Origin: a virus
Taxonomy: Duplodnaviria; Heunggongvirae; Uroviricota; Caudoviricetes
Virus record (IMG/VR): IMGVR_UViG_3300049846_001486
Location: 1-64,000 of that record
DNA length: 64,000 nt
Direction: 5' to 3' (one strand)
The position numbers were made by a program, and so were the translations under genes. The notes under the pieces were generated by a model. That model did not search any database and had not been told where the DNA came from. It worked only from the letters and a program-made list of their open reading frames with translations. Shown piece by piece: positions 8,833 to 64,000 of the stretch. Numbering within the stretch: the first letter of the stretch is position 1; each line of letters begins with the position of its first letter.

Positions 8833-8908
8833 GATTTAAATACCCTTTATAGTTATAATTATCAGTATTTGTAGATATATTAGCACATTAAGAACTTTAT
8901 GTCAAATT

Positions 8909-8932: not shown

Positions 8933-8986
8933 TTCAATTCGATTATTTTCGATAAATATTATAGCAGTTTAATAGGTAAATTATAA

Positions 8987-29902: not shown

Positions 29903-32900
29903 GTGAGCAAATCTGATTATACCAAAAAGAGTTTCAATTTTAATGACTACTTACCGGGCAACCTAAGAACTGCCATCGCTAATAGTCTTAACGATAACCT
30001 ATATAATCGTTTTTATAGCAAAGACGAGTATCAGCATGTAATCGGCGTCATAGGTACTCCAAACCCAACAGATGCCTCCCAGCGTCAAATTATAGAAGCA
30101 ACTGAATATCGTCAGAATAATCAATTACAGCCCGTAATAACCGCCCAAATTGGTGCAACTAAGTACCATATGACTTTTGAGGATATGCTCAATAAGTTGG
30201 AAACATTAGGGGTGGATATTTCTCAATACCCACAATGGGGAAACTCTCTACACTTTAATTGGGTTCCGCCTATTGATTTAGACAAACTAATCAATTATCA
30301 GAACTATTTCTGGGTAACAGATGATACCCAAGATAAACCACAATACATCACTATAAAGAATCATTGTAATTGGGTCTTGGCTAGATTGCGCCAAATTAAG
30401 AAATCTGTAGCAGGAATTTATGAAAACTTTACTATAGATTCTATGGATTTAGGCACCAATGAAATAATCATCCTCGGCAATAAGCTTTCTAAATTTAGTG
30501 TTGGTGAATTTTTAGTATTGTGGAACACAGAAAAGACCTATGAAGTTTTCGAAATAACTGGAACTTCCTATAATTCTGCAACAGAAGAAACTAGAATACA
30601 ATTCAATACCGCTCTTCCAGCAGATGTTACCTTTACCTCCGCCGCTAAAACGCAACAGGACATAAAGACCACCGACGCATTCAATAACTATTTCGTGTTA
30701 GACGGTGACGCTACAGCGTTGTTCAAACAAGGGTATGTTTTCATAACACAGGGCAGCGACTTATTGCCCAGCACATATTGGAAAGTAGATAAATCCGAAT
30801 ACATCGCTCAGGGTGAAACCACTCGCATTTATCCAACCTTAGATATTCCAGCCAACGCAGACTGGACCATTATAAATTCCCTACCATTAATTGTTATGGC
30901 CGAGGCCGAGTACAAAGTAGCTTGTGAAGACTCTAGTTTAGACTACATACAAAACTGGGCAGACTTCAGAGTTGGAGACATAATCTGGCACAAATATTAC
31001 ACGGTCATAGGGCAACAGACTACGGGACAAACCACATTAGGCTCTAATGTGTTTACTGACCCTACCACAAATTTCACGGATATGGGAGTCGTTGCCGGGA
31101 ATATTTTGAGAATCACTTCGGGACATAAAGTTGGAGATTTTCCAATCGTTGATGTTTTGGATTATGATTTAACATTGTCGGATGCTGATGTATTCTTTAC
31201 TCAAACTGGCGTAACTTACGAAATAGTAAAAGAATTAGCTATTGATGATTTTAGGTCTGAAGAAGAACCAACTTCTCCGGCAGTATACGACTATTGGTTC
31301 GATACGATTAACGATAATTTAAATCAATGGAACGGATTAAGTTGGGTAACCAGACAGGGCAATTTCAGTTTAATTTTGGATTTGACAAACGACAGACATA
31401 CCTTAGATATCCTTCAAACGGATGATTGGTCTACCCAGAATAAGTGGATACACAGAAACGATGTTGGAGCCGTGTCGGGTAAAACTAGAGCGCAGCTACC
31501 AATCATAGAGTTCAACCCTTTCTTAGAAATGGCAACTACTTCCTATGTTAAGAAAGCTTGGAGATATAGAAAAACTGCATCTGCCGGGTACGCCTCGGTT
31601 GATGAACAACCAACATTGATGGAATTGATTCTTGTTGATGATTTTTCTTTCTTGGATGCTTCAACAATAATTTTCCACGAAAAATACGGTAACCTCACTT
31701 CCGATATAGTTGCTGGAGTTAAGCTAAAAATAGTAAACTCTTCTTTGGGTGAAAATAACGGAGAATACGAAGTAGCATCTTCTGAATATGTGCAGTTATT
31801 TCCTACAGAAAGATATGTCAGTAAAGTAACTTTAACTACCACAGTTCCTAATCCTCTAAACAGTACGGGAAACATAATTCCATCTAAAACTGCGGTCGGA
31901 GATTTGTTCTTGGGTATAGACCAACAACAATGGATGTTTGACGGTATAGAAGAAATCGTCCCATCCAGTAAAAAACCAACAGCAAATCCCATGTTATCCA
32001 TATTCGTTTCGTCTGATACTGACGGAACTTTAGATACTTTGTTGGGTATGGTTTGGCAGGAATTTAAATACAATACTACTACCGAAGAAGTAGGTCCAAC
32101 ATTTACTTTAGATGATTCATTACATGATTTGTGTCTTTTTGAAGATTACCAAGAAGGTGATTTGCGTGTCTATATAAATGGTGTAAGACAGTATGGTAAT
32201 TTTACAGAAGCTCGTTCCGGATTGAATCAGGAATATGTAGGTTCTATAACCTTCAATGATACGGTAACCATAACAGACAGCGATGTTGTTAGAATTGAAT
32301 TAGGGGAAGCATATTCTCTGGATATAGGCAGAAGAAGTGTACAAATAAACACTCCTACTACATTCGATGAAAAGTTCAACTTGGTAAATTACAAAAAGAC
32401 TGAACAGATAAAATTGGATACTAATGAATATCCATATTTCTGTATTTTTGATATATTCGGAACGGCTTTGGATTTCGCTTCCAAAATTTTTAGCTTCAAG
32501 GAAAATTCAGAAAATGAAATCAATCCTCATGTATCTAGAAGATTAGACTACAACGAAACTACCAGAGATTATACATTCGTACAAGGATTGTTGGGTGAGT
32601 CCCAAGAATTATACCAATATAAAGATTATCAAAAGATTGCTAACGAATTACAGTCTGTGTGGAAGGCTGGAGAAAATCTAGAACAGTTCGTGCCTTACAA
32701 AGAAAACGATGCTTGGGTAATCCCACAACAGCTATATTACAATGTTAAACACGAAAACAGAGAAGAAGTAAAATTAACTGAAATCTTCACCCATTTCAGA
32801 AACATAATAGAAAATCAGACCGCTCCATCAATATACAGTCTGACCGGAAACCTATATTACATTGATGATAATGTCAATTACGGTATAGGCGGCACTATTA

Positions 32901-35900
32901 AAGAATACAACGACAATTTCTCCACATTAGTTTCTTCGCTATTTGTGAATAATGTAAACCCGATTTCCGTAATACAGTTTGCACATAATCAGTATTTGAG
33001 TAATCTCGAATACATTAAGAATACATTAAGAACCAATATATCTTCGTTATTGTTGAATACTGAAGCTGAAGATTTAACAGAATTGACTAATTACATAATA
33101 GTCTCAGTAAAGGAACAATTTGAGGGTAATGACAGATTGGATTTGTGGTTCGGGGATAGCACAACTTATAACGAGCTTACCAAAACCGGTATTAAAAACT
33201 GGATAGCCACATTGCCTTATTTCGGATTAGTACCGAAAGTAGCTCCGTATTACATAAAAGACTCAGTTCTCGGAATTTCCGAAATGGTTCACCATGACGG
33301 TCACAGAACCCAGTTGGCTTATGATATAGCAATCAAAGAATTGATAATTAAGAACATAATAGACAATTCTAACAATGAACAGCAGATTGTAACTTCAGAT
33401 TCTGAACCATTACCAGTATTGATTAATGGCAATACTGCTAAAGACAATGATTATGTAATCAGAACAAACACTACTACTAAGACCAGAAAAGTCTATCGTT
33501 ATAGCGTAGCTAATTCTTGGGAATTAGTAGATTTCGATGATATATTGTTGAAGACTATATTGTTCATAGAACAGAAGCTTTATGAGAATTGCCCGACCAG
33601 AGTATTCTTAAATTTCAACATGGATTCGGTGAGATTGAATACTGCTTATCAAGATTTGGTAAAACAGCAGTTCTCCACATATTTGAAGAACAATCAAATA
33701 AAAACGCCTTATGACAACAAAGAATATAAGACTAACGACCCATTTACATGGAACTACGGATATACAACTATATCCACTCATCCGATGACCGGGTTGCCAT
33801 CGTCAGATGTTAAAGCAACATGGCAAGCATTATACGAAAAGGTATATGGAACTCCATACCCACATTTAGAGCCTTGGGTATTGCAGGGATATAGAATCAA
33901 ACCAGATTGGTGGGATTCTTATTATTTGAATACTAATCCATTGGTTGATAGACTATGGAAATCAACGATGTGGAACAATATATTCAATGGTATCGTACCT
34001 TTAAACAAAGATACACCTACTGGTGCCGCAGGTACAGGCGCTGCCGGTCAATTGACCGAAGTGTTCGATTTCGTATCTGTCAATGTTGATGATACTCCTA
34101 CATTAGACGGAATCAAACCCGATGGTTTGTTACCACCGTATTGGAATACCAACAATACTACCGACCCTAGAGTAAGGTCGCTATATGACGCTTCCATTCA
34201 AGAATACATAACTAATCCACAAACTGGTTATGAATTTACGCAGAGAGGCCCAAGTGAATGGAAATGGGAAGTGTCTGCCCAGCGTCTTTACGATGATGCC
34301 ATAATCGCTTTCAAACTTCAACCAATGCGCTTCATGAACCAATTATTCGGCAACTCTTTCCAAAATGTTGCCGCATTGCAAGTGGAGACGACAAACCAAA
34401 GAGTCTTCACCCCGGAATTAACCATATTCCACGGTGATTTGATTGGTGACACAAATGTAGTTTACAAAACCAATGGATTGAACCAATGGTATGTTCACTA
34501 TAACCGTTATAACGGATTCGATGGACTGTCTTCGGAATTCAGAACCTTATGGAAGAATTGGGATGTTAAATTGGGTTATGCGGTCGGCGGATTTATTGAT
34601 ACCTCAAGTTTGAGTATTTTCAACAACACTTTCGACTTAAGCACTAAAGATTACACCGTTGATATTAAGAAAACTCATGGAATATCTAACAAATGGTTGG
34701 ATTCCTTGACTTTGACCTCGTTGAGCGTACCATCCAAAACAGCAAAATATAGAGATTCTGGATTGGGATGGACAGTAGAAATTGACACCAATTCTATTTA
34801 CGGAAAGCCTGTAGAATACTATCAACCTCAGAAATACCAATTTAAGGTATTGGACGATAATGAAACTTTCAGAAGCTTTGCTTACGATATAAGCGGAGCA
34901 GACATTTCCCAAGTCCAAGGGTATCAATTAGTCAATTATAATCAGTCTTCTTACAATCAATTAGAAACAGATTTGGATAATACATTCTTCTTGTATTATG
35001 CCGATGTTTTGGTTGATAATACCACAACAATAAATTTGGCCATATATGGTGCAAATGCTCAGACCTTCGCAGAAGCTATAACAGAAATCAACGCCCAATT
35101 GGGTGACTATGCTATAGCTTATATTCAAGAAGGTAATATCATAATCAAGAGCAAGACTATAGGCATAACCTCGGCTATAGAAATAACTGATGCGGGATTG
35201 TTCGCATCGTTAGATACAGAAAAATTCTCTGGATTGGACGCTCCACAACAAACGCAGTTGAAGTTCAACGGACGCTTTTATGTTGATGGAAACATCATGT
35301 CTGTGATGGAAGCCGGGAACGAAATTACAGTTTCTGATTCTACCAATTTGAACGGAACTTACACCATCAGAGATGTGTATTTCGACATAGTAACAGGAAA
35401 GACAATAATCAGCATATCTGAAGATATAGTCATTTCCGATTCTACGATAGATGGTGAAATTTATTTGGTAGGAGAAACTACCTTAAATTCTTTCCCAGAT
35501 GAATGGGTTGACGGAACTCAAGTTACTCTAACTACGACCCAAGTAGCGCCATCCGGAATGACGGAAGATGCAGTATACTACTTCAAGAAATTAACCAATA
35601 CGGATTTCGCATTGTATACTGATTCTAGCTTAACTAACCAAGTAACAGTAAACAGTTCTGGCTCAGGCCAGCACAGTATTGGGGTTGTTGTAGGAACCTT
35701 CAAAGCTCTCAATGGAAGCGCCACTCAAACATCGTGGAAGAAATATAAGTTCGATAAGAGACAGACTAATAAAATATATCCGCCAATTTATGTATCTACC
35801 ATACAGAGTATAATTGATTTGATTTTGGGATACGGAGAATATGCTACTGATATCGGATTCTTATTAAAGACAGAAGGCCGTAACAATATTGATGAACAGA

Positions 35901-38900
35901 CCGGAAGATATAACTCATGGCAGTTAGAAACAGAAAAGGTAATAAACTGGTTATACAATTTAAGAAAGACAAACCAGCAATACATGCCTTCATATGAAGC
36001 TACCGTAAATGTTGCCACAAGCTCATTTGTAATGACAGACGCGGTTACTACTACATGGAAATCTGGAACCAAAGTTAAATTACTAACAGACGGTGGTACA
36101 TTACCAGAGCCGTTCGACAACCCATTGAAGGGGTATGTCCCATATTACATAATAAAGACCGCTGACCCGAAGATTGTACAGTTGGCGGCAACTAAAGAAG
36201 ACGCCAAGAATGGTGTTGCTATAACTGTATTGACTCCGGGAGAAGGCAATGTAATCCTACAATTATTGTCAGATACCCAGCCGGTCTATGATTACGAAAT
36301 CAACCCTTTCAAAAATTACATTTGGGTAACAAATGAATATGGCGTTTTGGCTGATGTATTCTCTGGAGTGTCTAAACTAGATACGCCTACATATCAGATA
36401 ATATATGACAATAACGGAAATGAATTAAACAACAACAATCTTATAATCTTAAGACATGATAAAGAAAGCAGATTAAGCTTGACCTTAAATCAGCAAGAGA
36501 GAAACAAGCAGATAAGTTCCGGTACCCAAAAAGGTACAGTCAGTTATATGTCCGGTATGCATCTATTCTATGATGGCTATGAGCATATAGTGTTGTTCAA
36601 TGATTATTCCATTTCTGACACACTCATCTACGATTCATTCTTAGGATTGAACACTCCGCGCTTCTTCGTGGAATTCAACAGACAAAAGAATTTCACTTTA
36701 AGACCAAATGTTGGAGGATATGTAATATCTGATGATGAGCTTGTCCAGAATATAGAATCTTCCGTTGACGATATGAGAAATTACTACGATACCGAGAGAA
36801 CCATAGAAGGTAAACAGACCACACAATTGGTAAGAAAGACCTTGGGCTATGATGGTCCTAAACAGTATATGGACGACTTAAACATAAGTGACAAATCTCA
36901 GTTCAAATTCTGGAAAGGAATGATACAAAAGAAAGGTACGAACTTTGCAATATCTGCCTTTACAAACCAAGATGTTTATGATGATGCCAACATTGACGAA
37001 TTCTGGGCATATAAGCTTGCCGAATTCGGCACTTCCAAAGCTAAAGATTATTTCGAAATGAAGGTATCTCCTAATGATTCTACAAGAAAAGAATTGAGAT
37101 TGGAGTTCGTAGCAACCGATAGTTCTCCTACCGACCCATCATGTCAAGCTGTAGAATTGACGGATTTGAGCCGTTGGGAAAATCAACCGGATGCATTAGC
37201 AGCTATGAACCCTTACAAGTCCTTCTTCTTTAACTACAAAGTCGTAGAACTTATAGATAATGCCGAGAGTGAAATAACAACAGTAAATGGTAGATATGTA
37301 TTAGAACTTTCTGAAGTTAACGATGGTGTAATAATCACTTACTACGATACCGGCGATGATTTAAGAAAGACATTGGTTAAGGGTATAGATTTTGAATTAC
37401 TTTCTCACAAAGTAGTACACTTTACTACGCCATATAACCCTTCTACCCTTCAGGCTATTAAAGTCTACGGCGTTTCTTATGATTATGAAGGACATACTCC
37501 TGTAAAATTAATAGATAAGAAGACCAAATCAACGGTATTGAATCTTCCAGTATGGAACCCGCTAAAACAAGAATACTACGCTAATGCTTATGCTGTAGTT
37601 GATATTAGAGCAGCCCAAGACCCTGCTGATTATACTAATTATCCAACTAGCGCCACTCCGGTTACCAACAATTCTTACTGGACAGAAAAGCAAGTAGGCA
37701 AAGTGTGGTTCGATTCTTCGATTGAGGGATATATGCCTTACAACGACACTTCCATATATCCTAAGTTAAATGACAGAATGTTGCTATGGGGTAAATTGGC
37801 AGAATGGGCCGATATCAACTTATATACTTGGGTAGAATCAGAAGTCCCTCCATCTGAATGGGATGCTGCTGCCGCTTCACAAGACGGAGACTATACAGTA
37901 GATTCTAAGTTCAAGAAATCCGGTACGGTAAAGAAGCGTCTTTATGAGAATACCGGGTCTCCATCTGTTCCTGTATGGCAAGAAATACAAGACCAACACG
38001 AAGAATTTGTTGCAGGTTTGGTGACTTTGAGTAACACAACGGCGTTCACAGGAAATGTTGAATACTACATTAATGGTGAGTATACGCAGACCGCCGCAAT
38101 TACAGGAGCTTCCTTCGTAACATATGCTGCCGGATTGGACCCTCAGACCATAATACATCTTGTTAAAAAGGCCGTAGTTCCTACCCAGCAACAAATAGAC
38201 GATTTAGAATACAAATACGACACCCCGTACACTTCGTTAACCAAGATTAACAAAGAAAGTGGACTACCATATCAAGTGTATTATTTCTGGGTCAATGGGT
38301 ACGACTTCGACAAGGCTACCACAGAAAAGAAAATAAATGTTCTTCATGCTGAGAAACTTTTCAAGAATATGTCCGACCCATATTGCGTAATACAGAATTT
38401 AACATCTTCTGATATCGGATATGGATTAGTGTTTGGTAATAACTTTGATGACGAGGGCGATTCTTCGTTGCCTTGGAGATACACACAATGCATCATTAAA
38501 GGTCTAGAAGGTAAAATTAAAGATAAGGATAGATATGTTCTTAAGTTCTTAAGAGACTTTTCTTTGAGGACCAACTTAGCTTCTACTGACCTTACATATA
38601 AAAACAAGCATACCGAATGGAAGTTGTTCAGAGAAAAACAGACTTCTAAGATTGATGAAGCGTTATGGAACAAAATAGTAGAGGGTATGGCAGAATATGC
38701 TGTAGTCAACAGAGTAGTTGATACTACCACACCTGCCCCGGACTATAACAGAAAACTGTTCGATGATTTATATGATTCAGATACCAGTTTTGGTATACAG
38801 GACGGTATGGTTCTAGTTGATAAACAGACCGGTCTAAACACTATAAATAAATTGTTGAACAGCACCGAGAAACAATATTCTCAAAATATAACTGATTTCT

Positions 38901-41900
38901 TGGAACAATATGATTTCGAATCCCCGGAAAATATTGTAGAAGCCATGTATCAGATTTATGATACTTTCAGTATAGATGATGTAAATTATATATTCTTTAA
39001 CATGCTTATGGACTATTTTAGTTTGAAGAAAGAGAGCAAAGACATATTCAAGACTTCTTGGGTAGCGTTGCAAGTTTCTCAAAATATAAAACCGTATACG
39101 GATTCTCAAACAGACACTATTAAATTGGAAGCTGGCGGTAAAGCCTTCTTCGGTGAATTGTCTTCTGCGGAAGCAATAGATGTTCTTCCAATTACGGACT
39201 ATCTATTGTATTTGTTGAGCGACGGAACAATCGTATATTCACTACACGACGGTTTCACGGAAACTATTGTATTAGCCCAGAACCCGCCAAGAATAGCAGG
39301 TAGCGGAGCAAGAACCGATGTATGGACAGACGGAACCTACATTTATACCACAAGTATCAACGGTGGTTTGGATGTGTACTACTATAATGGTACAAATTTC
39401 ATATTGATTGGTGGCAATACAACTCCGGGTAACCACTATGGCGTAGTAGGATTTAACCCAATCTTGGTAGTATCCGATACCGGAGAAGGCTTGATTGCTT
39501 ATGAATTTGACGGTATAGAATTAGTCAAAATAGCAACCTGTGGAGATGTTACGACCAATGTTAAAGCAGTATGCATTCATAATGGATACATAGCAACTTG
39601 TGGATATGATAGGGTTGATATTTGGCAATATACCGGATACTCATTACACCATGTAACTTTCTTACAGGGTCTGACTGGCGGTGCGGATGTTATATCCATC
39701 GCATCTGACGGCGAATATCTGTACACGGGAAGCAACAATACAACAAAGGTGCAGGTATTCTCATTTGATGGCAGCATAATCCAACAAGTGTATACTGACC
39801 CTACCATAAATTCTTCTCCGGCAATAGCCGCTGGTGGCGGTAATGTATTCTATGGTGGTATAGGTTTGAAGGTGTATAGATTTAATGGCTCGTCTTTGGT
39901 ATTACAAGATTCTATTGATGGGGTAGTTATTGACGGGTCGTTGATGTATTCTCATGATTCCAAGAGACTATATTCTTCAGATTTAGGAGTTTTTAATTTC
40001 ACTACTGGCCGCTTAGAACAGATAACAGATGTTCCTGTTCCAGTATCTCAGTTAAATTCTGGTGATGTAAGTTTGGCTGGAGCTATAAATTTACCTAAAC
40101 CAAGTCCAACTCCAACTAGAACAGTAACACCTACTATTACCGTATCTCCGACAGTTACCCCAACGAATACCCCAACTAATACAGTAACTCCTACCAATAC
40201 TAGAACAGCTAGCACAACCCCTACACCAACTAATACGACGACCCCAACGACTACCCCGACCCCAACGGTTACCCAAACAGCATCCGTGACACCAACTCCA
40301 TCAATAACCCCAACATCTACACCAACGGCAACTGTAACTCCAACTAACACGCCGACTAATACTCAAACCGCAACTCCAACGAATACGGTAACCCCAACGA
40401 ATACTCCAACGGCTACTTCAACAGTAACTCCAACGAATACGGTAACCCCAACTTACACAGTAACTCCAACGAATACACCAACCGCGTCTGTTACCCCAAC
40501 AATAACTCCAACCAACACGGTTACCCCAACTAATACTGTAACTCCTACTAATACTGTAACCCCGACAGTCACTTCTACAGCCACAGTAACCCCCACGACA
40601 GCCGCAAGCCCTACTGTTACCCCAACTAATACACCGACTGCATCGGTTACTCCTACTGTTACCCCAACTAATACACCGACTGCATCGGTTACTCCTACTT
40701 CAACAGTAACTCCAACGAATACGGTTACTCCGTCGAATACTGTAACCCCAACGAATACCCCAACGGTTACCCCTACTTCAACTGTTACCCCAACTAACAC
40801 AGTTACCCCAACAAATACCGTTACACCAACGAATACCCCAACAAACACGGTTACCCCAACGAATACTGTTACTCCAACGAATACCCCAACAAACACGGTT
40901 ACCCCAACGAATACTGTTACTCCAACTAACACCGTTACTCCAACGAATACGATAACCCCAACCAATACTCCAACGAATACAGTAACTCCAACTAACACCG
41001 TTACTCCAACGAATACCCCAACATCAAGTGTAACTCCGACTGTAACCCCTACAAGTACGGTTACCCCAACGAATACTGTTACTCCAACGAATACCGTTAC
41101 ACCAACCAATACTCCAACAAGTTCATTAACCCCTACGGTCACTCCAACGAATACCGTTACTCCAACGAATACGGCTACTCCGACTTATACTCCTACTTCA
41201 ACCGTCACTCCAACAAACACGGTTACCCCAACAAATACACCGACAGCATCAGTTACCCCAACGAATACTGTAACTCCAACGAATACCGTTACTCCAACAA
41301 ACACGGTTACCCCAACGAATACGGCAACGGCATCAGTTACGCCGACTAATACTCCAACTAATACAGTAACTCCTACTAACACAGGAACGCCCGGAGCCAC
41401 ACCGACTGTAACGCCGACAAACACCCCAACCGTTACCCCAACAAATACTATTACTCCAACTTATACTATTACCCCAACAAATACCCCAACCCCAACGAAT
41501 ACCCCAACGAATACTGTAACTCCAACTAATACAGTTACCCCAACAAATACACCGACAGCATCAGTTACCCCAACGAATACCCCAACAAATACCGTTACCC
41601 CAACGAACACAGTTACCCCAACAAATACACCGACAGCATCAGTTACCCCAACGAATACCCCAACAAATACTGTAACTCCAACTAATACCGCAACACCAAC
41701 GAATACAGCCACATCTACAGTAACCCCAACGGCATCTGTTACTCCTTCGGTAACTCCAACAAATACAGTAACTCCAACAAATACCGTTACCCCAACGAAT
41801 ACGGCTACACCAACTATAACACCTACAGTAACCCCAACTAACACAGTTACCCCGACTTATACGGTTACCCCAACGAATACAGTAACTTCGTCCATTACTC

Positions 41901-43276
41901 CAACGGCAACGGTCACCCCTACGGTAACCCCAACTAACACAGTTACCCCGACTTATACGGTCACCCCAACGAATACTGTTACTCCAACAGTTACTCCTAC
42001 ACCTTCTGTAACCCCAACAGAAACACCAACGAATACACCAACTCCGACGAATACTGTTACCCCAACAAATACTCCAACGGCTTCGTTGACTCCAACTAAT
42101 ACTCCAACCAACACGGTTACCCCAACTAATACTGTAACCCCAACGAATACCGCAACCGCATCTGTTACCCCAACGAATACCCCAACCAATACCTTTACTC
42201 CAACAAATACGGTAACACCAACTTATACAGTAACACCTACCTTTACGCCTACTGCTTCTGAAACACCAACGAATACACCAACGAATACTGTTACTCCGAC
42301 GAATACATTAACTCCTACTGTAACACCAACCCCTTCGGTTACTCCAACAGAAAGTCCTACTAATACTGTTACCCCAACTAATACGGTAACACCGACTTAT
42401 ACAGTTACTCCAACGAATACTCCTACTTCAACAGTAACTCCAACTAACACCGTTACCCCGACGAATACTGAGACCCCAACGGTAACTCCGACCGTTACAC
42501 CAACGAATACGCCAACAGTAACACCTACAAGCACGATAACTCCAACGAATACTCCAACAACAACGCCAACAAATACATTAACTCCGACGAATACAGCAAC
42601 CCCAACGATAACTCCGACGAGGACACCAACTACTACTAGAACTCCAACTAGAACTCCAACTATAACTCCAACAAATACAGCGACCCCAACGGTTACACCA
42701 ACCTTTACACCAACAAACACCGTTACGCCAACAATCACACCAACAGTCACACCAACAAGTACGGTTACACCAACCTTTACACCAACAAACACCGTTACGC
42801 CAACAATCACACCAACAGTCACACCAACAAGTACGGTTACACCAACAGTCACACCAACAGTCACACCAACGAATACGGCAACTCCAACCGTAACCCCAAC
42901 CGTTACTCCAACGAATACGGTAACTCCAACCCGTACAGTAACTCCGTCTCCAGCACCTCTAACTGTGTCTGTTGCCGATGCCGGAAATGATGCTTATACT
43001 TCATGTTCGACAGCCGTATGTGGCGGTTCATGTACTTCGAGCGACACAATAACTGCAACTCCTTCTGGGGGAACAGCGCCATATTCTTATTCTTGGACTA
43101 AAACTGCTGGTGTTGGTGCTATAACTTCTGGTTCAACATCAGCTACTTGTACGGTGTCTAGAACTGCCGGTGCTTCTATATTAACTGGTACATTTAAATG
43201 TACGGTTACGGATAATGTTGGCGGTTCGGCAAATGCAAGCATAGTAATGACCTTTGAACACGCTGACGGATGTTAA
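29903..43276 (+). CDS. giant baseplate-associated structural/adhesin protein (4457 aa): large N-terminal body (gp7 position), beta-propeller-like repeats, a roughly 950-aa Thr/Pro hexapeptide-repeat mucin-like domain, and a C-terminal Cys-containing Ig/SprB-repeat-like domain
   Basis: A single uninterrupted frame of 13.4 kb with a GTG start and GGAAG RBS, sitting where gp7 sits in T4 (after gp6). Residues about 3400-4350 are TPTNTV-type repeats. The final roughly 105 aa contain four Cys and a [10 protein letters not shown]-type motif. Confidence 0.7.
40100..42950 (+). repeat. coding tandem repeat of about 2.85 kb with an 18-nt period encoding (T-P-T-N-T-V)n and variants
   Basis: Roughly 150 imperfect copies of ACnCCAACGAATACnGTn. 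The reverse strand therefore yields artefactual VGVTV ORFs in the six-frame track. Confidence 0.9.
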
Positions 43277-43298
43277 TAAATAATAAAAGAGATTCAAA

Positions 43299-44081
43299 AT
43301 GGCCGAGTTCAGTAACAAAAATTTAAAGAATTATTTCTACATGGAACAATTCAGAAAAGCCATAGTACAGACTATGGCTGTATTTTCTGGATTAAAGGTT
43401 GCTATTGGAAAAAACGATAACGATACTGGCGATATAAACTATATTAATGTTCCAATTAAATACGGTTCAGCCGATAGAGTTGTAGCAGCAATTAAAGCGG
43501 AGAATACCCAAAATGCCGCCATTCGAGTCCCAATGTTGGCATTAAAGGTGACTAATATAGATTTGGCCGAAGGCGAAAGAAAGGGCACCAATCAAAAAAT
43601 AAAGACAAAATACCTTCCGTTTGGTGGAAAGATGCCTGATGATTTAGTAATAGCAGAAATGCTAGTACCATACCCATATAGAATGGTTTGCGAACTTGCT
43701 ATATTGGCCTCTAATACTCACCAACATTTTCAAATGTTGGAACAAATATTAATGTTATTTGACCCGACCCTACAAATACAAACTTCAGACGACCCATTAG
43801 ACCATACGAAAATTAAGAATTTGAAATTGGAATCTATAGGATTTGATGAAAATTATCCATCCGGCACGGAAAGAAGATTAATAGTTACCAATATAACAAT
43901 AGAGGTTATAATTTATCTGACAGCCCCGGTTCAATTTAGAAAAGATTACATCAAATCCGTAGTTTTAAGAATGAATTCTATTAGTGATTCAGGGACAGCT
44001 TATGAAGCGGTTTCGGCTCTCAATAACGAAACTGGCGAAAAAATAATAGATATTGAAGATTTGGATATACCCGAATCTTAA
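43299..44081 (+). CDS. tail completion / sheath stabiliser candidate (gp15-like position)
   Basis: 260-aa ORF immediately upstream of the tail sheath gene, with an ATAAATAA motif upstream. Assigned by position. Confidence 0.3.
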   Translation: MAEFSNKNLKNYFYMEQFRKAIVQTMAVFSGLKVAIGKNDNDTGDINYINVPIKYGSADRVVAAIKAENTQNAAIRVPMLALKVTNIDLAEGERKGTNQKIKTKYLPFGGKMPDDLVIAEMLVPYPYRMVCELAILASNTHQHFQMLEQILMLFDPTLQIQTSDDPLDHTKIKNLKLESIGFDENYPSGTERRLIVTNITIEVIIYLTAPVQFRKDYIKSVVLRMNSISDSGTAYEAVSALNNETGEKIIDIEDLDIPES

Positions 44082-57624: not shown

Positions 57625-58344
57625 ATGACCGGCAAGAAAGGGAAAAGCGGAAGAAAAAGAAAGTCTTATTCGTTTGAAGAAGCCAAAACAAGGGTTCAGA
57701 ACGAAGGAATAAGCTCGGTCGTAGAATACGCTCAATGGTGGGAATTGAATAAACCCGCTAGGATGCCTAAACGCCCAGACAGAGCCTACAAACAACAGTT
57801 TACTACTTGGAACGACTTTTTAGGTTTAAACAATGTTTTCCCCTTCCATCCAAGAAATTACATACCATACAAACAAGCTAAAGCTTTTGCTCATACTTTA
57901 AATTTAAAATCTAGAGACGAATGGTTGGAGTATTGTAAGAAGGGAACCAAACCAGATAATATACCGATAAGACCAGATGTTAAGTATAGGAAAACCGGAG
58001 AATGGTTTTCTTGGAAAGATTTCTTAGGGTATTCTTTGGAAGATAAACTTGAATTTGCAAAAACAATTACTGATATTCTTTATATTTTTAAATCCAATGG
58101 CGGGCCGAGGAATCTTTATAGAATAGGGAAAATAAAGAATACAAAAGAATATGTAATAGATTACGCCTTGAAAAACGATGAAACTATAATTGCTATATTT
58201 AATTATGATTCTGCCGTAAATGTCAAATCAATAGTTATGAAATATGGTTCCGAATATGCGTTTAAGAGTACAGGCGATGAATACTTGATAAACAATATTC
58301 ATGGATTGCTGTTCGATTTGGACAGCGTGATGGTTAAGATATAA
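57625..58344 (+). CDS. hypothetical protein with tandem W-x2-W-(D/N)DFLG repeats
   Basis: Two copies of a P..Y...W..W.DFLG-like motif (YKQQFTTWNDFLG and GEWFSWKDFLG). GATAAATATAC motif upstream. Confidence 0.4.
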   Translation: MTGKKGKSGRKRKSYSFEEAKTRVQNEGISSVVEYAQWWELNKPARMPKRPDRAYKQQFTTWNDFLGLNNVFPFHPRNYIPYKQAKAFAHTLNLKSRDEWLEYCKKGTKPDNIPIRPDVKYRKTGEWFSWKDFLGYSLEDKLEFAKTITDILYIFKSNGGPRNLYRIGKIKNTKEYVIDYALKNDETIIAIFNYDSAVNVKSIVMKYGSEYAFKSTGDEYLINNIHGLLFDLDSVMVKI

Positions 58345-58759
58345 TCGAATATTTTGTTTGCAGATATTTATTAAAAGCCGGTATAATACAGCGTTGTATA
58401 TCTCTGCCGTGGTCCATAAATTCTTCAGGAGTCATCCAGCAAATATCCCCAGTTTCAAAATGATACGGAATCAAAGCATCTGGATTTATAACTTCACAAG
58501 TGTAATAAAAGGTGTTGCCGGTATAAGTTCCTAAGAATTGAATATTCTTCATATTGGTTGGGATTATACCAAGTTCTTCCGTGGCCTCTCGCACAGCAGC
58601 TTCTTCATTAGTCTCACCGGGGTCTATAATTCCCTTAGCGAATTGAAAATCCGGCCCACCGTACTTCGGGTCAGAAGGTTTCATGGTCAAGATTTTAAGA
58701 CCATCTTGGAACACATAGTAGGGAATCATCCCTGCTCTTTTCTTTTTGTTATTGCTCAT
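58334..58759 (-). CDS. NUDIX hydrolase
   Basis: Perfect Nudix box GIIDPGETNEEAAVREATEELGI. Confidence 0.8.
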   Translation of the reverse strand: MSNNKKKRAGMIPYYVFQDGLKILTMKPSDPKYGGPDFQFAKGIIDPGETNEEAAVREATEELGIIPTNMKNIQFLGTYTGNTFYYTCEVINPDALIPYHFETGDICWMTPEEFMDHGRDIQRCIIPAFNKYLQTKYSIIS

Positions 58760-58862: not shown

Positions 58863-59291
58863 ATGCAGCTTCCACATTATGTATTAGTAGACTTATATGA
58901 TAACGGTATCGGACACGAAGTTATCGTTATGAAACAGGATAAATCCAACGGCGACTTTTATTACATCAAAGTCGAATCGTTAGACGATGTTGACAGAAAG
59001 AGATTGCAGACCATTTTGAGTCGCCGTGAGGCTCCAAATATGGAATTGTGGGATTTAATGAGCAACATTACATTGGGTAACGGTGTTAATGCTCTTGAAT
59101 ACTTCCACCAGCTTGTCAAAATTAAGACAAGAAGCGGCAAGCACATCAGCCCATCGTCCGGTAGAAGGGGTATGGCAGTAGCAATTGCTCCAGAAAAGAG
59201 TCAGTTTGCTGAAACTCCTGCTCCACAGGCAGAAGCCGCGCCAGCAGCTAAGGCTAAGAAAGTCAAAGCTGCTCCAGAAGCACAAGGCTAA
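58863..59291 (+). CDS. hypothetical protein with an Ala/Lys-rich C-terminal tail
   Basis: Strong RBS AGGAGAA. C-terminus AAPAAKAKKVKAAPEAQG. Confidence 0.35.
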   Translation: MQLPHYVLVDLYDNGIGHEVIVMKQDKSNGDFYYIKVESLDDVDRKRLQTILSRREAPNMELWDLMSNITLGNGVNALEYFHQLVKIKTRSGKHISPSSGRRGMAVAIAPEKSQFAETPAPQAEAAPAAKAKKVKAAPEAQG

Positions 59292-59307: not shown

Positions 59308-59345
59308 GGACAGGGGGTGAGACTCGCCCCCTTGTCTATTTTCAA
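59308..59345 (+). terminator. rho-independent terminator
   Basis: GACAGGGGG-TGAGACTCG-CCCCCTTGTC followed by TATTTTC, a GC-rich hairpin in an AT-rich genome. Confidence 0.45.
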
Positions 59346-59367
59346 GAGTCTTTATGTGAGGTAATTT

Positions 59368-60747
59368 ATGAAAGCTGACACTATTTTTGTGCAGGTTGCG
59401 AGCTACCGTGACCCACAATTGATTCCGACTTTAGTTGACATGATTGACAATGCGGCCAAGCCACAAAATCTACATATAACCGTATGTTGGCAGCGCGGCC
59501 CAGAAGAAACCGAAGAAATGTTTTTCGAGAAAGGTTTCAAATTTATCAATAGACTTCCAAATTCAAAAGTTGAAGGTGAAGTAGTCACCTTAGAACGCAA
59601 CAAAGCGCAGATAAAATTAATTGATATTCATTTCCACAAGACCAAGGGCGCTTGTTGGGCAAGAAACCAAATACAGCAATTGTATGATGGTGAAAAATAT
59701 ACCCTACAGTTAGATTCCCACCACAGATTTGCCCCAAACTTTGATTCCGAATTAATCAAAATGATTAAAGGTTTACAGAAAGACGGGGTTAAGAAACCAT
59801 TATTGACGGGCTATATTCCTTCTTTTGACCCGGAAAGAGACCCGGAGGCCAGAGTACAAGAACCTTGGAAGATGGATTTTGACAGATTCATCCCTGAAGG
59901 CGCAGTATTCTTCTTACCATCTACTATGGAAGGGTGGAGAGAGATGACCAAACCTTTCCCTTCTAGATTCTATTCCGCTCACTTCTGTTTCACATTAGGA
60001 CAGTTCTGTGAAGAAGTACAACATGACCCAGAATATTTCTTCCACGGGGAAGAAATTGCAATCGCTGTTAGAGCATTCACGCATGGTTATGATTTGTTCC
60101 ACCCGCACCTACCATTAGTGTGGCACGAATATACCCGTAAAGGTAGAGTCAAGGTATGGGATGACCATACTACAGGCCAAAAGAATAAGGGTAGAGTCGA
60201 ATTGGATTGGGTAGAACGCAACAACATCTGCCATAGAAGAAATAGAATTCTTTTCGGCATGGATGGCGAAGACCCAAATACCATAGATTTTGGTAAGTAT
60301 GGATTCGGTAAAGAAAGAACATTAAGACAGTACGAAGAATATGCCGGTATCAGCTTCCAGTACAGAGGCGTACAGCAGAAGACCTTAGACCGTCTTCCTC
60401 CGCCGAATAATGTACCATACAATACCGAAGAAGAATGGAAGAATACTTTTAGTATGTCTAACGATATACGAATCTTATTACACAGGTCTGAACTGTTTAA
60501 TGAAGAAGGTAAATTGGAAGATGATTATGATTTCTTCTATGTTGGCGCTCATGATATTGACGGTAAAGAACTTCACAGAAAGGACTTGACTGAAGTTGAT
60601 ATTAAAGAAAAATTAATGCACGAATGGATAGATTATAGATTCATATTCATTTCAGTAAATACACCAGTAACTTACACAATTTGGCCTCATAGCAAATCTA
60701 AAGGCTGGTTAAAAAAGATAGATAAGAAGATAGTAGAAGGGACTTAA
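59368..60747 (+). CDS. GT-A fold glycosyltransferase with a DxH motif, resembling polypeptide O-GlcNAc/GalNAc-transferases (GT60/GT27-like)
   Basis: N-terminal TIFVQVASYRDP and the catalytic-region YTLQLDSHHRF (a TxLDxH DxH motif as in ppGalNAc-T FLDSHCE). 459 aa, strong RBS. Confidence 0.5.
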   Translation: MKADTIFVQVASYRDPQLIPTLVDMIDNAAKPQNLHITVCWQRGPEETEEMFFEKGFKFINRLPNSKVEGEVVTLERNKAQIKLIDIHFHKTKGACWARNQIQQLYDGEKYTLQLDSHHRFAPNFDSELIKMIKGLQKDGVKKPLLTGYIPSFDPERDPEARVQEPWKMDFDRFIPEGAVFFLPSTMEGWREMTKPFPSRFYSAHFCFTLGQFCEEVQHDPEYFFHGEEIAIAVRAFTHGYDLFHPHLPLVWHEYTRKGRVKVWDDHTTGQKNKGRVELDWVERNNICHRRNRILFGMDGEDPNTIDFGKYGFGKERTLRQYEEYAGISFQYRGVQQKTLDRLPPPNNVPYNTEEEWKNTFSMSNDIRILLHRSELFNEEGKLEDDYDFFYVGAHDIDGKELHRKDLTEVDIKEKLMHEWIDYRFIFISVNTPVTYTIWPHSKSKGWLKKIDKKIVEGT

Positions 60748-60750
60748 TAA

Positions 60751-63120
60751 ATGAAAGATAAGTTAATTCTTTCGGCTTACGGCTCACATAACGCAGCAAT
60801 AGCCATGTATTACAAAGGCCAGTATCATGTAGTAGAAGTAGAGCGTTGGCTAAACTACAAAAATATCGGTCTTAGCAACTATATGCCAGTTCGCAATATG
60901 CAATTGGTATTCGACCAAATAACCGAATGGTTATTGAATAAGACTGATAGAAGCGATGTTGATGTATTCTTGACCGACTATCTACCTCACATAGTTCCTA
61001 AGTTTAATTACAAGGAAAAAATCGGTTTCGAGCATCATATGGGTCATGCCGCCACCGCTTTCTATCAGTCTCCATATCAAAAATCCTTAGTCTTCACCTT
61101 CGATGGTGGCGGCGATGGTGCCTATTTCAATGTATATCTAGCTGATAGACATAAGGGAATAGAGTTGATTGACAAGTTCAATCAAGATTTAGGATTCCCA
61201 TACATGATTCTTTCGGATTATCTAAAGGATATCAAGAAAGAATCATTGACCATAGCTAACTTGGTCTATGCCGGTAAACTTATGGGATTATGCTCATACG
61301 GTAAAGTACAGGAAGAATGGCTACCCCACTTCGATGCTTTCTATGATAAGTTCAATTATTTCGGTAATGCCTATATCGGTGGGGCCGAAGCTAGATATTC
61401 TGCCATCACAGAATTGATGACAGCTATTGGTGTTGAAGATTTCGACTTTGAAGATACTAGATTGGAAGGGCAGATTGCTTGGGATATAGCAGCAACTACC
61501 CAAGCCGCTTTCGAGAGGCAGTTCTTCAAGTATGCTCAAAAGTTCTTAGATATGTACCCAGACCTTCCGGTATGTTTGGCTGGCGGTTGCGCTTTGAATG
61601 TTCTTTTGAACACTAAGATTTTACAGCAAAGAGGCGGTAATGTATTCATTCCACCAAACTCAAATGACTGTGGTATAGCAGTAGGCGGATTGTTGTGGTA
61701 TCAAAAGCCCCAGCATCAAGTTGATTTAACTTATTCAGGCTTGCCGATAATGGACGAGACTGAATTGGGAATCTATTTAGAAGACCACAAATTTGATGTT
61801 GTGGAAAATGTTTCATTGAAAGAACTGGCAGCATTCTTAGCCAAGAATTACATTGTAGGATTCATACAAGGCAACTCTGAACACGGAGCTAGAGCCTTGG
61901 GTAACAGAAGTATATTGTGTAATCCTGTCGGGAACATGAAAGATGTTATAAACGATAAAGTGAAACATAGAGAATGGTACAGACCATTCGCCCCTATGGT
62001 GCGTCTGGAAGATGTGGATAAGTATTTCGATGGTTTCATCGGAGAATCCAGACACATGACCTTCGTTGCTACGGTACGCGAAGAATGGAGAGATAAGTTA
62101 CCAGCTATTACTCACGAAGATAATACTGGTAGAATCCAAACCTTGACCAGAACCCAAAACGAAAAAATTTATGACTTGATTACAGAGTTTGAAACTTTCT
62201 CTGGGCACGGAGTCTTGTTGAACACTTCGTTCAACATAAACGGCAAGCCTATATTGACAAGATACGCAGATGCCTTGAGCTTGTTAGAAAGCTCGCAGAT
62301 GGATGCAGTATACTTTGCTGATAGAAAGATTCTAGTATTCAAGAGAAACGAATCCAAATCCTTTACGAAATCTTTAGAGAAAACTGATGGTATGGCTCCA
62401 TTGCTCTTGGAAACTACCGTAAATGTGATGGTATTCCCGGAAACAGCCGAAGAACTAACGGACAAATATATAAATGATTTGGTTAAAGTTTCCAAGTCGG
62501 TCCCGTATTTGACCATAGTTACTACTGAAGAATATGCTCAAATTATCAACAGAAGCATAACAGGAAACAATGTTAGATATCATTATATCGGTGATAACAG
62601 ACTGTACTATTCTCATGTTATAGAGAAAGCAAAGAGTCTGTATCCTTCGTATAAGACCAATAAAATACATTATTTCTCTAAATTCATAACAATCTTATGG
62701 GCTAAAGAGGTTCTCAGAGATAATGTATTCGGAACTAAATATCATGTATTCATAGACCCATCACAGTTTACGGAAAATTTCTCATATAATTTCGTAAGAG
62801 ATGTTTCTATACTAGCTTTGGCTGCAAAGATTGACGAGTTCAAGATATTAGTATCTGCAACTAAGAAACCTATAGATAGTTCCATACCAGAAGAATATCT
62901 TACTAAGAAGTACGAGAAAATGCCAGATATGGCTCCGCTACCTGCCATTATTGCTGGTAATGTCGAGTCTATAGAATGGTTAAGCTCCAATTTTGAGGGT
63001 ATGATATTGTGGCACGGGCAGCAGCGCCTAGTAACAAAGGCTGCTGATTTCATGTTAGCTTCTGCCGCAGAATATGAACATATGTACAAATATTTACCGG
63101 TGGAAAATAACGATGATTAA
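60751..63120 (+). CDS. NodU/CmcH/TobZ-family O-carbamoyltransferase with a roughly 250-aa C-terminal extension
   Basis: N-terminal Kae1/YgjD-like domain (LSAYGSHNAAIAMY, GFEHHMGHAATAF) and the C-terminal carbamoyltransferase motif GNSEHGARALGNRSILCNP. Confidence 0.8.
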   Translation: MKDKLILSAYGSHNAAIAMYYKGQYHVVEVERWLNYKNIGLSNYMPVRNMQLVFDQITEWLLNKTDRSDVDVFLTDYLPHIVPKFNYKEKIGFEHHMGHAATAFYQSPYQKSLVFTFDGGGDGAYFNVYLADRHKGIELIDKFNQDLGFPYMILSDYLKDIKKESLTIANLVYAGKLMGLCSYGKVQEEWLPHFDAFYDKFNYFGNAYIGGAEARYSAITELMTAIGVEDFDFEDTRLEGQIAWDIAATTQAAFERQFFKYAQKFLDMYPDLPVCLAGGCALNVLLNTKILQQRGGNVFIPPNSNDCGIAVGGLLWYQKPQHQVDLTYSGLPIMDETELGIYLEDHKFDVVENVSLKELAAFLAKNYIVGFIQGNSEHGARALGNRSILCNPVGNMKDVINDKVKHREWYRPFAPMVRLEDVDKYFDGFIGESRHMTFVATVREEWRDKLPAITHEDNTGRIQTLTRTQNEKIYDLITEFETFSGHGVLLNTSFNINGKPILTRYADALSLLESSQMDAVYFADRKILVFKRNESKSFTKSLEKTDGMAPLLLETTVNVMVFPETAEELTDKYINDLVKVSKSVPYLTIVTTEEYAQIINRSITGNNVRYHYIGDNRLYYSHVIEKAKSLYPSYKTNKIHYFSKFITILWAKEVLRDNVFGTKYHVFIDPSQFTENFSYNFVRDVSILALAAKIDEFKILVSATKKPIDSSIPEEYLTKKYEKMPDMAPLPAIIAGNVESIEWLSSNFEGMILWHGQQRLVTKAADFMLASAAEYEHMYKYLPVENNDD

Positions 63121-64000
63121 ATTTGTAACGGGTCTTTATAACTGGATGCATAATACAAAAATGAACGGAAGGAACGGTAGAGAATTCTACTATATGTTCT
63201 CTCTTCGTTCATTAGCTAATATGAAAAGTGAAATCATATGCTATACGACCAACAAAGAAATTGAATTCATGGGAGACTTCTTAGAACAACAGAAGGATGC
63301 CATGACTAATGTTATATTCGTTGATAGACCGTTGACGAATTATCGTCATCATAATAGAGTTATGGAAATTAAGGATGAGAACCCATTTTACTATACTGAA
63401 CCTTCTTGGATGGATAGAAATATAGAAATCATGTGGGGTAAATTTGATTGGATGGAAGAACAAATGCAATCAATGGGCGATGACGATTATATGTTCTGGG
63501 TTGATGTTGGAATATCGCACGGTGGCATTTTCCCAAATCGTTTGAATCCATACTTCGACAATCCAGACTTCTTCATCAAGAGGCCGGAATTAGGTGATGT
63601 AGTTAATGACAATAGCATTCACAGTAAATTCCAATATAAGTTCAGATTCGAGAGAATTTTCAACGAGAATTTCCCAAAGAAATTACAGGAATATGCCGGA
63701 GATAAATTAGTCCTAGTTGCAGGAAATCACCCACAGCACAATGATGCTTGGCCTTTGGAGTTCAATATAAAGGTACATTTGTACCCAATCGGCGGTATCT
63801 TCGGTGGTAAGAAGAAAGTCTTGATGCCATTTATTCGTGAATTCAGAAAAATATCCGAATACTTGTTGAACGAGGGATATCTCGTTAAAGAAGAACAGAT
63901 AATGCACTATTTGATTAATGTTGATGAAGATTTTGATAAGTACAAAATCTTCAATTTCCAAACATGGTACCATGATGATTGGGGTGATGAATGGAAGACT
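63113..64000 (+). CDS. hypothetical protein, N-terminal 296 aa (continues beyond the window); possibly another glycan-modifying enzyme
   Basis: ATG overlaps the carbamoyltransferase stop (ATGATTAA). The frame stays open to the window end. Confidence 0.4.
   Translation, partial: MIKFVTGLYNWMHNTKMNGRNGREFYYMFSLRSLANMKSEIICYTTNKEIEFMGDFLEQQKDAMTNVIFVDRPLTNYRHHNRVMEIKDENPFYYTEPSWMDRNIEIMWGKFDWMEEQMQSMGDDDYMFWVDVGISHGGIFPNRLNPYFDNPDFFIKRPELGDVVNDNSIHSKFQYKFRFERIFNENFPKKLQEYAGDKLVLVAGNHPQHNDAWPLEFNIKVHLYPIGGIFGGKKKVLMPFIREFRKISEYLLNEGYLVKEEQIMHYLINVDEDFDKYKIFNFQTWYHDDWGDEWKT

Follow-up and report, generated by a model that had tools for sequence, protein, structure and literature searches.

A candidate mucin-type protein O-glycosylation cassette in a jumbo phage and its association with Thr/Pro-repeat proteins

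At the 3' end of a 64,000-nucleotide stretch of phage DNA (IMG/VR record IMGVR_UViG_3300049846_001486, positions 1 to 64,000; hereafter the window) lie, one after the other, genes for a glycosyltransferase (GT), an O-carbamoyltransferase (CT) and a third protein encoded by open reading frame (ORF) 3. What would a phage decorate with such enzymes? An initial annotation, made before any database search, had called the three ORFs and read them as a system that glycosylates a protein of the phage's own virion. All three are indeed present where it had placed them, and its overall reading is supported by comparison of related loci, by the enzyme families, by a recurrent link to Thr/Pro (TP) repeats and by the glycoproteins of the related phage XacN1. 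We put at about 0.6 the probability that these genes are the start of a cassette by which the phage O-glycosylates protein in the cytoplasm; its most likely target is the TP repeat of the giant tail-base protein encoded by the phage itself, which it would coat with modified sugars.

The window derives from a jumbo myophage related to the Xanthomonas phages XacN1 and Xoo-sp13 and the Stenotrophomonas phages CM1 and RAS14. Nucleotide identity to these relatives is ~66% across the GT and CT genes, and DNA polymerase ... RNase H ... NUDIX ... GT-CT-ORF follow in the same order in the window and in the XacN1-type relatives.

The enzymes encoded by the three genes

The three genes and the parts of their products discussed below are as follows (aa, amino acids).

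59368..60747, plus strand: GT, a GT60-like GT-A glycosyltransferase of 459 aa (ORF call, PF11397)
59713..59721, plus strand: DxH metal-binding motif of the GT, D116-S117-H118 (invariant in the homologue alignment; AlphaFold2 model)
60445..60744, plus strand: C-terminal beta-rich domain of the GT, residues ~360-459 (secondary structure of the AlphaFold2 model)
60751-63120, plus strand: CT, an O-carbamoyltransferase of 789 aa (ORF call, PF02543 and PF16861)
60751..62340, plus strand: O-carbamoyltransferase core of the CT, residues 1-530, with Kae1-like and YrdC-like domains (PF02543, PF16861, TobZ match)
62341..63117, plus strand: extra C-terminal domain of the CT, residues 531-789 (hhalign to the ORF3 family)
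63113..64000, plus strand: ORF3, a putative stand-alone HtrL/YibB-like GT-A glycosyltransferase (ORF call; cut by the window end)

The GT matches the profile PF11397, "Glycosyltransferase (GlcNAc)" (GlcNAc, N-acetylglucosamine), with an E-value of 1e-73 and 249 bits against a cut-off of 21 bits, its residues 5-331 spanning profile positions 1-351 of 352. More than 7000 clusters of GT homologues were found, and PF11397 is present in 120 of the 120 homologues listed. By its Pfam description PF11397 corresponds to CAZy family GT60, to which Skp1 Gnt1 and the alpha-GlcNAc transferases acting on polypeptides in protists belong. The GT60-like character proposed initially is backed by the full-length profile match. 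GT60 enzymes start mucin-type O-glycosylation in protists and are kin of the GT27 polypeptide N-acetylgalactosaminyltransferases (ppGalNAc-Ts), lacking their ricin-like domain (PMC8724618, PMC6939170); enzymes of both families favour Thr/Pro-rich, mucin-like acceptors (PMC8724618).

The two sequence motifs on which the initial annotation had relied, ASYRD and an LDSHH-type DxH, are both found in the GT, within the N-terminal "VQVASYRDPQL" and within "LQLDSHHRF", and D116, S117 and H118 are invariant among 41 homologues. In an AlphaFold2 model (mean confidence, pLDDT, 86.9) the DxH directly follows beta-strand 111-115, the usual position of the GT-A metal motif. The model comprises a GT-A domain, the catalytic domain occupying residues 1 to ~330, and a beta-rich domain at residues ~360-459. 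The closest solved folds are those of two GT27 enzymes, ppGalNAc-T1 and TgGalNAc-T3, so the proposed likeness to ppGalNAc-Ts holds for the fold, but not for the sequence and domain features of GT27: identity to the GT27 structures is 13-14%, the Glycos_transf_2 profile scores 17.8 bits, below its cut-off of 23.3 bits, and there is no ricin domain. The GT does display the features of GT60/PF11397 enzymes, namely a whole-domain profile match, a GT-A fold with DxH after the fourth strand, and relatedness to GT27 without the ricin-like lectin domain.

The C-terminal beta-rich domain of the GT occupies the position where animal ppGalNAc-Ts bear their ricin-like lectin domain. It had no match among PDB sequences or in Pfam, and it recurs at the C-terminus of 370-aa HtrL-like enzymes elsewhere (iterated profile, independent E-value 4e-22; for example L026:14060-15172). 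Since the domain is common to the GT and these partner enzymes, it may be a shared targeting or assembly module, by analogy with the lectin domain of ppGalNAc-Ts. Some metagenomic GT homologues of 700-797 aa (P0002, P0003, P0061 and P0074) are tandem fusions of two PF11397 domains; the DxH is lost from the N-terminal copy in P0061 (IASSMRF) and P0074 (VASHMRF), which suggests from the sequence that this copy is degenerate, possibly with a regulatory or binding role. As duplications of one and the same domain, these long homologues are uninformative about the substrate.

The CT carries both Pfam domains of its family, Carbam_trans_N (PF02543, E = 5e-28) and Carbam_trans_C (PF16861, E = 6e-56), and in the structure database it matches TobZ (3VEN, E = 2e-43) as well as NovN and GdmN. 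In a phmmer alignment H95, H99, D118 and the "NSND" Asp of the CT fall on the residues of the Kae1-like metal site of TobZ, whose ligands are reported to be H114, H118, D137 and D338 (H-x3-H, Asp, Asp; Parthier et al. 2012). With the NodU equivalog model NF041651 the CT scores 182 bits against a cut-off of 1000 bits. By these profile scores the CT belongs to the NodU/CmcH/TobZ family, as had been claimed at the outset, but it is not an orthologue of NodU.

Beyond this core the CT has an extra C-terminal domain, which among the loci compared is confined to the XacN1-like lineage. The domain had no Pfam match and no usable sequence match in the PDB. Profile comparison (hhalign) aligns it with the ORF3 family at a probability of 89-90% (E = 2e-6, 195 columns), pairing "FID" of the CT with "WVD" of ORF3. 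Judging from this alignment, it is probably a divergent HtrL/ORF3-like GT-A domain, and the CT would therefore probably be a carbamoyltransferase fused to a glycosyltransferase-like domain.

ORF3 itself is the orthologue of XacN1 ORF332. Within the window it encodes 296 aa, and as a 96%-identical protein has 309 aa, ~13 residues should lie past the window end. Its paralogue is the HtrL_YibB domain at the N-terminus of a 550-aa protein conserved in related cassettes; the two are linked by BLAST (E = 3.5e-7 for the L004 orthologue of ORF3), by iterated profile search and by hhalign (probability 99.6%). When compared directly with HtrL/YibB profiles, ORF3 had no Pfam hit and a weak match to TIGR02192 (E = 2e-4, 21 bits versus 265); the 550-aa cassette enzymes are PF09612-positive. 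A structure model of ORF3 shows a GT-A fold. A 240-aa ORF and a 550-aa HtrL-like enzyme are expected just beyond the window end. The identical GT protein is on record from a 76.8-kb JGI contig; look-ups of the exact GT, CT and P0121 proteins gave no match, nor did an exact 42-nucleotide pattern taken from the window end when run against metagenome and viral contigs. None of the three window proteins, GT, CT or ORF3, contains a hydrophobic segment.

The three genes are tightly packed, with a gap of 3 nucleotides between GT and CT and an overlap of 8 nucleotides between the stop of CT and the start of ORF3, and so make up one translationally coupled unit. A GAGGT ribosome-binding site (59359-59363) precedes the GT. 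Upstream of it, between a 142-aa ORF and the GT, lies one further feature:

59312..59332, plus strand: terminator-like hairpin, a 9-bp stem with 6 G-C pairs followed by a T-run (consensus scan and sequence reading)

The position of this hairpin before the GT indicates that a new transcription unit begins there. A sigma-70 promoter scan stayed at chance level (19 found, 20.9 expected).

Cassette architecture and the link to Thr/Pro repeats

We compared 87 related loci, from four cultured phages or assemblies and from IMG/VR contigs. In 78 of them the 550-aa HtrL-like enzyme is encoded after the GT, in the same orientation, and ends the cassette. Zero to six genes intervene, differing by lineage; an ORF3-like gene occurs in 30 loci, a CT in 24 and a sulfotransferase in 6. 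The variable genes include GT25, GT10 (fucosyltransferase), GT7C and PLOD-type glycosyltransferases, CmcI-like and FkbM methyltransferases, a GT1-like protein, DUF3431 and Sulfotransfer_4. Of the 24 loci with a CT, 23 have it on the cassette strand between the genes for the GT and the 550-aa enzyme, and elsewhere its slot is held by methyl- and sulfotransferases. The functional grouping of GT and CT made in the initial annotation is thus borne out, but its view of the CT as one half of a core pair had to be given up: the CT is an optional tailoring step, and the conserved partner of the GT is the HtrL-like transferase.

The cassette opens with an initiating enzyme and closes with a conserved terminal one, with a polymorphic set of elongating and tailoring enzymes in between, as would be expected of a soluble pathway that glycosylates protein step by step. 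No flippase (Wzx/ABC), polymerase, lipid-carrier priming transferase or Gtr-type protein was found among the cassette families that were annotated, which cover the 87 loci except for some rare families. In one phage group an Hsp20/alpha-crystallin gene lies just 3' of the cassette (family F35, 12 loci; L037:15417-15863 and 11 group-B loci).

The window also encodes a protein of mucin-like composition:

29903..43276, plus strand: giant virion structural protein of 4457 aa with a GTG start (phrog_10938), the proposed acceptor
40067..42952 (approximate), plus strand: Thr/Pro repeat (TPTNTV)n of ~960 aa (composition in 150-aa windows; boundaries read from the sequence)

The giant ORF lies directly 3' of the gene for a baseplate wedge subunit and matches phrog_10938 "virion structural protein" (E = 2e-83); XacN1 ORF325 is its orthologue, and no other ORF in the window is TP-rich. 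Its repeat, at residues ~3390-4350, is 47% Thr and 19% Pro overall (46-51% and 19-21%, respectively, in 150-aa windows) and is followed by a Cys/Ser/Thr/Gly/Ala-rich domain of ~105 aa that ends the protein. The "950-aa Thr/Pro repeat protein" noted earlier is therefore a real repeat, though not a separate protein. The repeat is ~15 times longer than that of the XacN1 orthologue. The region 40001-44000 also shows an extreme strand-composition anomaly (GC skew -0.53, AT skew +0.31), which is caused entirely by the ACN and CCN codons of the repeat and marks no replication feature. Ser/Thr-rich stretches without Pro occur in two other ORFs, 24840-26537 and 47897-49042 (for example "SLSISSSEPSVVSPKSLTSPSVS"); these could be further O-glycosylation targets or mere linkers.

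Among cultured phages the GT is rare, occurring in 4 of 50,697 records, and in all four phages the giant orthologue has TP-rich segments, those of XacN1, Xoo-sp13 and CM1 being shorter and in an equivalent position. In phage RsoM2USA, where the giant protein has only a partial orthologue, both the GT and the TP segment are missing. On several other phage backbones TP-repeat ORFs of different families (F4, F8, F24, F31 and F2, and singletons) lie directly upstream and often downstream of the cassette, and some of these flanking proteins bear Laminin_G-like or other non-repeat domains.

The association of GT and TP repeats was assessed in both directions. Outside the XacN1-like group we defined 26 lineages at 80% GT identity and took the expected number of TP-rich neighbours from the frequency of such ORFs within each locus. 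The upstream neighbour was TP-rich in 9 of the 26 lineages as compared to 2.2 expected (P ~6.5e-5), a value that overstates the independence of these related lineages; at 65% GT identity they merge into 2 groups and the test loses all power, so this result is suggestive only. In the reverse direction, independently of synteny, viral contigs were scanned for a pattern encoding (TP)6, which yielded 120 stretches totalling 1.14 Mb. A GT of the PF11397 clade was present in 9 of these, 8 of them from new contigs, and a CT in 3. These GTs lay mostly within a few kb of the repeat (three were 5-12 kb away) and on its strand. By a hand estimate, a GT frequency of 1% among viral contigs would give ~1.2 occurrences where 9 were seen (Poisson P ~5e-6), and the protein database suggests that the true frequency is far below 1%. 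Repeats encoding (TP)6 were also frequent in metagenome bins of nucleocytoplasmic large DNA viruses (IMG/VR GVMAG contigs L094, L128, L129, L151, L159 and L186), with no PF11397-clade GT in any of these stretches.

The same link appears in bacterial genomes, so that the connection of the GT to TP repeats, at first a guess, now has support from bacteria as well as from viral contigs, in the latter whether one starts from the GT or from the repeat. In Burkholderiaceae, GT homologues with 43-58% identity lie inside type VI secretion system (T6SS) clusters (loci L236, L230, L212, L210, L240, L245, L251 and L255, with the GT at ~8001-9380), where the order by Pfam is TssE, TssF, TssG, TssA, a fimbrial/MrkD-like protein, GT, Rhs, VgrG and TssM. 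A perfect (TP)n tail terminates the VgrG of 8 of 16 such loci, and most of the remaining VgrGs end in other Pro/Thr/Ser/Glu repeats (PPPTE, PPPSEE or TPDE). This parallel is striking because VgrG and the phage baseplate are homologous machines, and it suggests that T6SS spikes are glycosylated. TP-rich ORFs are also found beside the GT, or 1-2 genes from it, in Saprospiraceae, Gemmatimonadota, Planctomycetes and Verrucomicrobia, where the GT is then followed by an HtrL-like or other conserved enzyme.

Upstream of the cassette, a NUDIX hydrolase gene (58334-58759) lies on the minus strand, opposite to the cassette, among two unannotated ORFs at 57625-58344 (239 aa) and 58863-59291 (142 aa, with an Ala/Pro/Lys-rich tail). 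Their synteny with the cassette is confined to the XacN1-like lineage, where it holds throughout, and they probably belong to the replication module and not to the cassette.

What the cassette may modify

The proximity of cassette relatives to TP-repeat genes, in phages as well as in T6SS clusters, points to the phage's own TP repeat as the part most likely coated. The families and folds of the enzymes, the operon structure, the make-up of the cassette and its association with TP-repeat genes are results of the analysis; from them we infer the acceptor, the sugars, the order of steps, the site of carbamoylation and the role as follows. The GT, with its DxH and without a membrane segment, would place a first sugar, probably an N-acetylhexosamine (HexNAc) taken from a UDP-sugar of the host, on the Thr residues of TP repeats, the acceptor here being the ~960-aa (TPTNTV)n stretch of the baseplate-associated 4457-aa protein, the sole such region. 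HtrL-like GT-A enzymes (ORF3, probably the C-terminal domain of the CT, and the expected 550-aa enzyme) would then extend the glycan, and the TobZ/NodU-type CT would add a carbamoyl group to a hydroxyl of a sugar, with carbamoyl phosphate and ATP as substrates. A tail-base or fibre structure would thereby gain a mucin-like spacer dense in glycans, with suggested roles in protease resistance, stiffening, shielding or adhesion.

Phage XacN1 provides an experimental anchor. At least two glycoproteins of its virions stain with Schiff reagent (PAS-positive), and Yoshikawa et al. suggested that ORF328 and ORF334 make them (PMC5852040); virion-protein glycosylation by the orthologous GT has therefore already been proposed in print. 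ORF334 is 62% identical to the GT of the window. In XacN1, four small genes directly follow ORF325 (L001 14798-17946, minus strand of the locus), among them ORF328 (GT9 heptosyltransferase-like) and ORF326 (weakly GT2-like). This set converges on the GT-CT cassette, so that ~ten genes related to glycosylation form one unbroken run with the gene of the putative substrate. The four-gene set (ORF326/ORF328 type) is absent from the window.

Several observations weigh against the coating of the TP repeat by this cassette. The fold matches of the GT are distant, and a search of PDB sequences with the GT-family profile matched no solved structure, so that its relationship to GT27 is at the fold level only; the equation of PF11397 with GT60 follows the Pfam description. 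The TP-bearing gene lies 16 kb from the cassette in the window, where the cassette follows the replication module, and 7-11 genes from it in relatives of the window lineage. Some loci with the GT, in lineages 22, 30, 37, 38, 41 and 42, lack a TP-rich ORF within 10 kb. Viral contigs often encode TP repeats, 111 of the 120 stretches selected for them having no GT inside the stretch. The glycoprotein bands of XacN1 were reported without identity (PMC5852040). Finally, the GT25, GT10 and HtrL families, and GT9 in XacN1, also build the cores of bacterial lipopolysaccharide (LPS) and lipooligosaccharide (LOS).

This last point leads to the strongest rival explanation, remodelling of the host envelope, in which the LPS/LOS core or another surface glycan would be altered and carbamoylated, blocking superinfection or the loss of progeny to debris. 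HtrL/YibB, GT25, GT10 and GT9 enzymes are known from LPS/LOS loci, HtrL occurring in the outer-core loci of A. baumannii, LOS-type transferases are soluble as are the cassette enzymes, and such a role was suggested by Iyer et al. for glycosyltransferase clusters of jumbo cyanophages (PMC7824862). However, the characterised members of the lead enzyme's family all act on polypeptides, and its best fold matches are ppGalNAc-Ts. Envelope remodelling also leaves unexplained both the association with TP-repeat ORFs and the VgrG-(TP)n context in T6SS clusters; the annotated cassette families lack Gtr-type, Wzx/Wzy and priming transferases, and the virions of XacN1 do bear glycoproteins (PMC5852040). 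We therefore regard it as unlikely.

Less likely again is the modification of some other protein (capsid, sheath or a host protein), with the TP association reflecting shared phage ancestry and not specificity. The anonymous XacN1 bands, the distance between the TP gene and the cassette in the window lineage and the loci without a nearby TP-rich ORF would all fit such a target, and mycobacteriophages are reported to glycosylate the C-terminal tails of capsid and tail-tube proteins (cited in PMC12619734). Shared ancestry does not readily account for the recurrence of the TP association with non-homologous TP proteins, on varied phage backbones and in bacterial T6SS clusters, and GT27/GT60 enzymes prefer Thr/Pro-rich, mucin-like acceptors (PMC8724618).

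Could the target instead be DNA? The GT and CT would then decorate hydroxymethylated bases, giving 5-carbamoyloxymethylcytosine or glycosylated 5-hydroxymethylcytosine (5hmC) or 5-hydroxymethyluracil (5hmU). A phage carbamoyltransferase of the same Pfam family does make 5-carbamoyloxymethylcytosine (PMC8670742), GT-A enzymes glycosylate phage DNA (bioRxiv 10.1101/2023.12.21.572611), and in the XacN1-like lineage the cassette comes after the replication module, near DNA polymerase, RNase H and NUDIX genes. Yet the 64-kb window contains no thymidylate synthase (ThyA) homologue, and the 8 ThyA homologues near related cassettes all have C146/H147/N177, 6 of these loci lacking a CT; N177 excludes a dCMP hydroxymethylase, though not a dUMP hydroxymethylase (the 5hmU route). 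BssHII, NaeI and SpeI all cut the DNA of XacN1, evidence against bulk hypermodification of its bases (PMC5852040). Known DNA GT-A enzymes resemble JGT/TarP, carry R..DDD..EDY motifs and occur in a 5mYOX or ThyS context, whereas the GT of the window has DxH and is ppGalNAc-T-like; carbamoyltransferases in unmodified contigs are flanked by glycosyltransferases (PMC8670742), and in other phage groups and in bacteria the cassette lies away from replication genes. DNA hypermodification thus seems very improbable. The carbamoyltransferase residues W408, G421 and R423 were left unused, as their source is silent on which variants accompany DNA modification (PMC8670742).

Equally improbable is a free or lipid-linked decorated oligosaccharide, such as a Nod-factor-like signal or another small molecule: the set of NodU, NodH-like sulfotransferase and methyltransferase recalls Nod-factor tailoring, and TobZ, NovN and GdmN act on small molecules, but the annotated cassette families include no NodC-like chitin-oligosaccharide synthase, NodA/NodB, exporter or scaffold-synthesis genes, and such a product gives no reason for the TP association or for virion glycoproteins.

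Relation to known systems and biological meaning

The closest enzymatic counterparts are the GT60 polypeptide alpha-GlcNAc transferases (Gnt1 of Dictyostelium and Toxoplasma, and the mucin-type enzymes of T. cruzi and Dictyostelium) together with GT27. The GT shares with them PF11397, the GT-A fold and the DxH; like GT60 it has no ricin-type lectin domain, and it is tied genomically to mucin-like Thr/Pro sequences. It differs in being a phage and bacterial enzyme, cytoplasmic and without a signal anchor, and in bearing a ~100-aa beta-rich C-terminal domain of its own that is shared with HtrL-like enzymes.

In the serine-rich-repeat adhesin islands of Gram-positive bacteria, GtfA/GtfB and variable Gly/Nss/GlyD/GlyE/DUF1792 transferases are encoded along with an accessory Sec system. 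The logic there is the same: a repeat gene stands beside a cytoplasmic HexNAc initiator and strain-variable elongators, giving polymorphic O-glycans on a fibre-like spacer. The phage initiator, however, is a GT-A, GT60-like enzyme and not a GT-B GtfA/B pair, the repeats are Thr/Pro-rich and not Ser-rich, no accessory Sec system is present, and the carriers would be phage virion proteins and T6SS spikes.

In logic the cassette is most like these islands and the virus-encoded systems of virion glycosylation. The latter, such as A64R of chlorovirus PBCV-1, the capsid and tail-tube glycosylation of mycobacteriophages and the XacN1 proposal, differ from the cassette in their enzyme families and in the acceptor type, here a mucin-like TP repeat; in the searchable literature, carbamoyl, sulfo and methyl tailoring and a TP link are undescribed for these phages. 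With TobZ, NodU, CmcH and NovN, whose characterised members carbamoylate hydroxyls, often on a sugar, the CT shares both Pfam domains and the metal-site residues, and it differs from them by its extra, probably HtrL-like C-terminal domain of ~260 aa and by its place in a protein-glycosylation cassette instead of a pathway for antibiotics or Nod factors. The phage 5hmC carbamoyltransferase (Yang et al. 2021, eLife, PMC8670742) is of the same Pfam family and likewise phage-encoded, but it pairs with a ThyA homologue of the dCMP-hydroxymethylase type (Asp at E. coli position 177); the window has none, and those near related cassettes are of the dUMP type. Our searches of the literature found nothing relevant on GT60 or PF11397 in phages, and no account of the cassette architecture, of carbamoyl/sulfo/methyl tailoring, of the TP-repeat association or of the T6SS parallel.

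More tentatively, and at odds somewhat short of even, the cassettes may represent a widespread and so far undescribed prokaryotic form of mucin-type O-glycosylation. It would comprise a GT60-like initiator that brings its own targeting domain, a partner of the HtrL type, and fucosyl-, galactosyl-, methyl-, sulfo- and carbamoyl-transferring enzymes in hypervariable combination, which together would build strain-specific glycans on the TP spacers of contractile-injection machines (baseplate and fibre proteins of phages, VgrG tails) as a diversifying "glycan coat" at the end that contacts the host.

Should the proposed glycosylation of TP repeats be true, thousands of uncultured large phages would bear a self-contained mucin-type glycosylation system, and relatives of the eukaryotic GT27/GT60 enzymes would be placed in prokaryotic viruses. 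The cassettes would also offer new soluble enzymes for glyco-engineering, including an O-carbamoyltransferase for glycoprotein sugars. The hypothesis is directly testable in the cultured phages XacN1, Xoo-sp13, CM1 and RAS14. The common TP-repeat regions of phage structural proteins would be glycan carriers and not plain linkers, which would bear on virion stability, adsorption and recognition by immune or defence systems, and also on the reading of virion proteomics, since heavily glycosylated repeat peptides are invisible to standard searches. The VgrG-(TP)n parallel would carry the same idea over to the weapons of bacteria.

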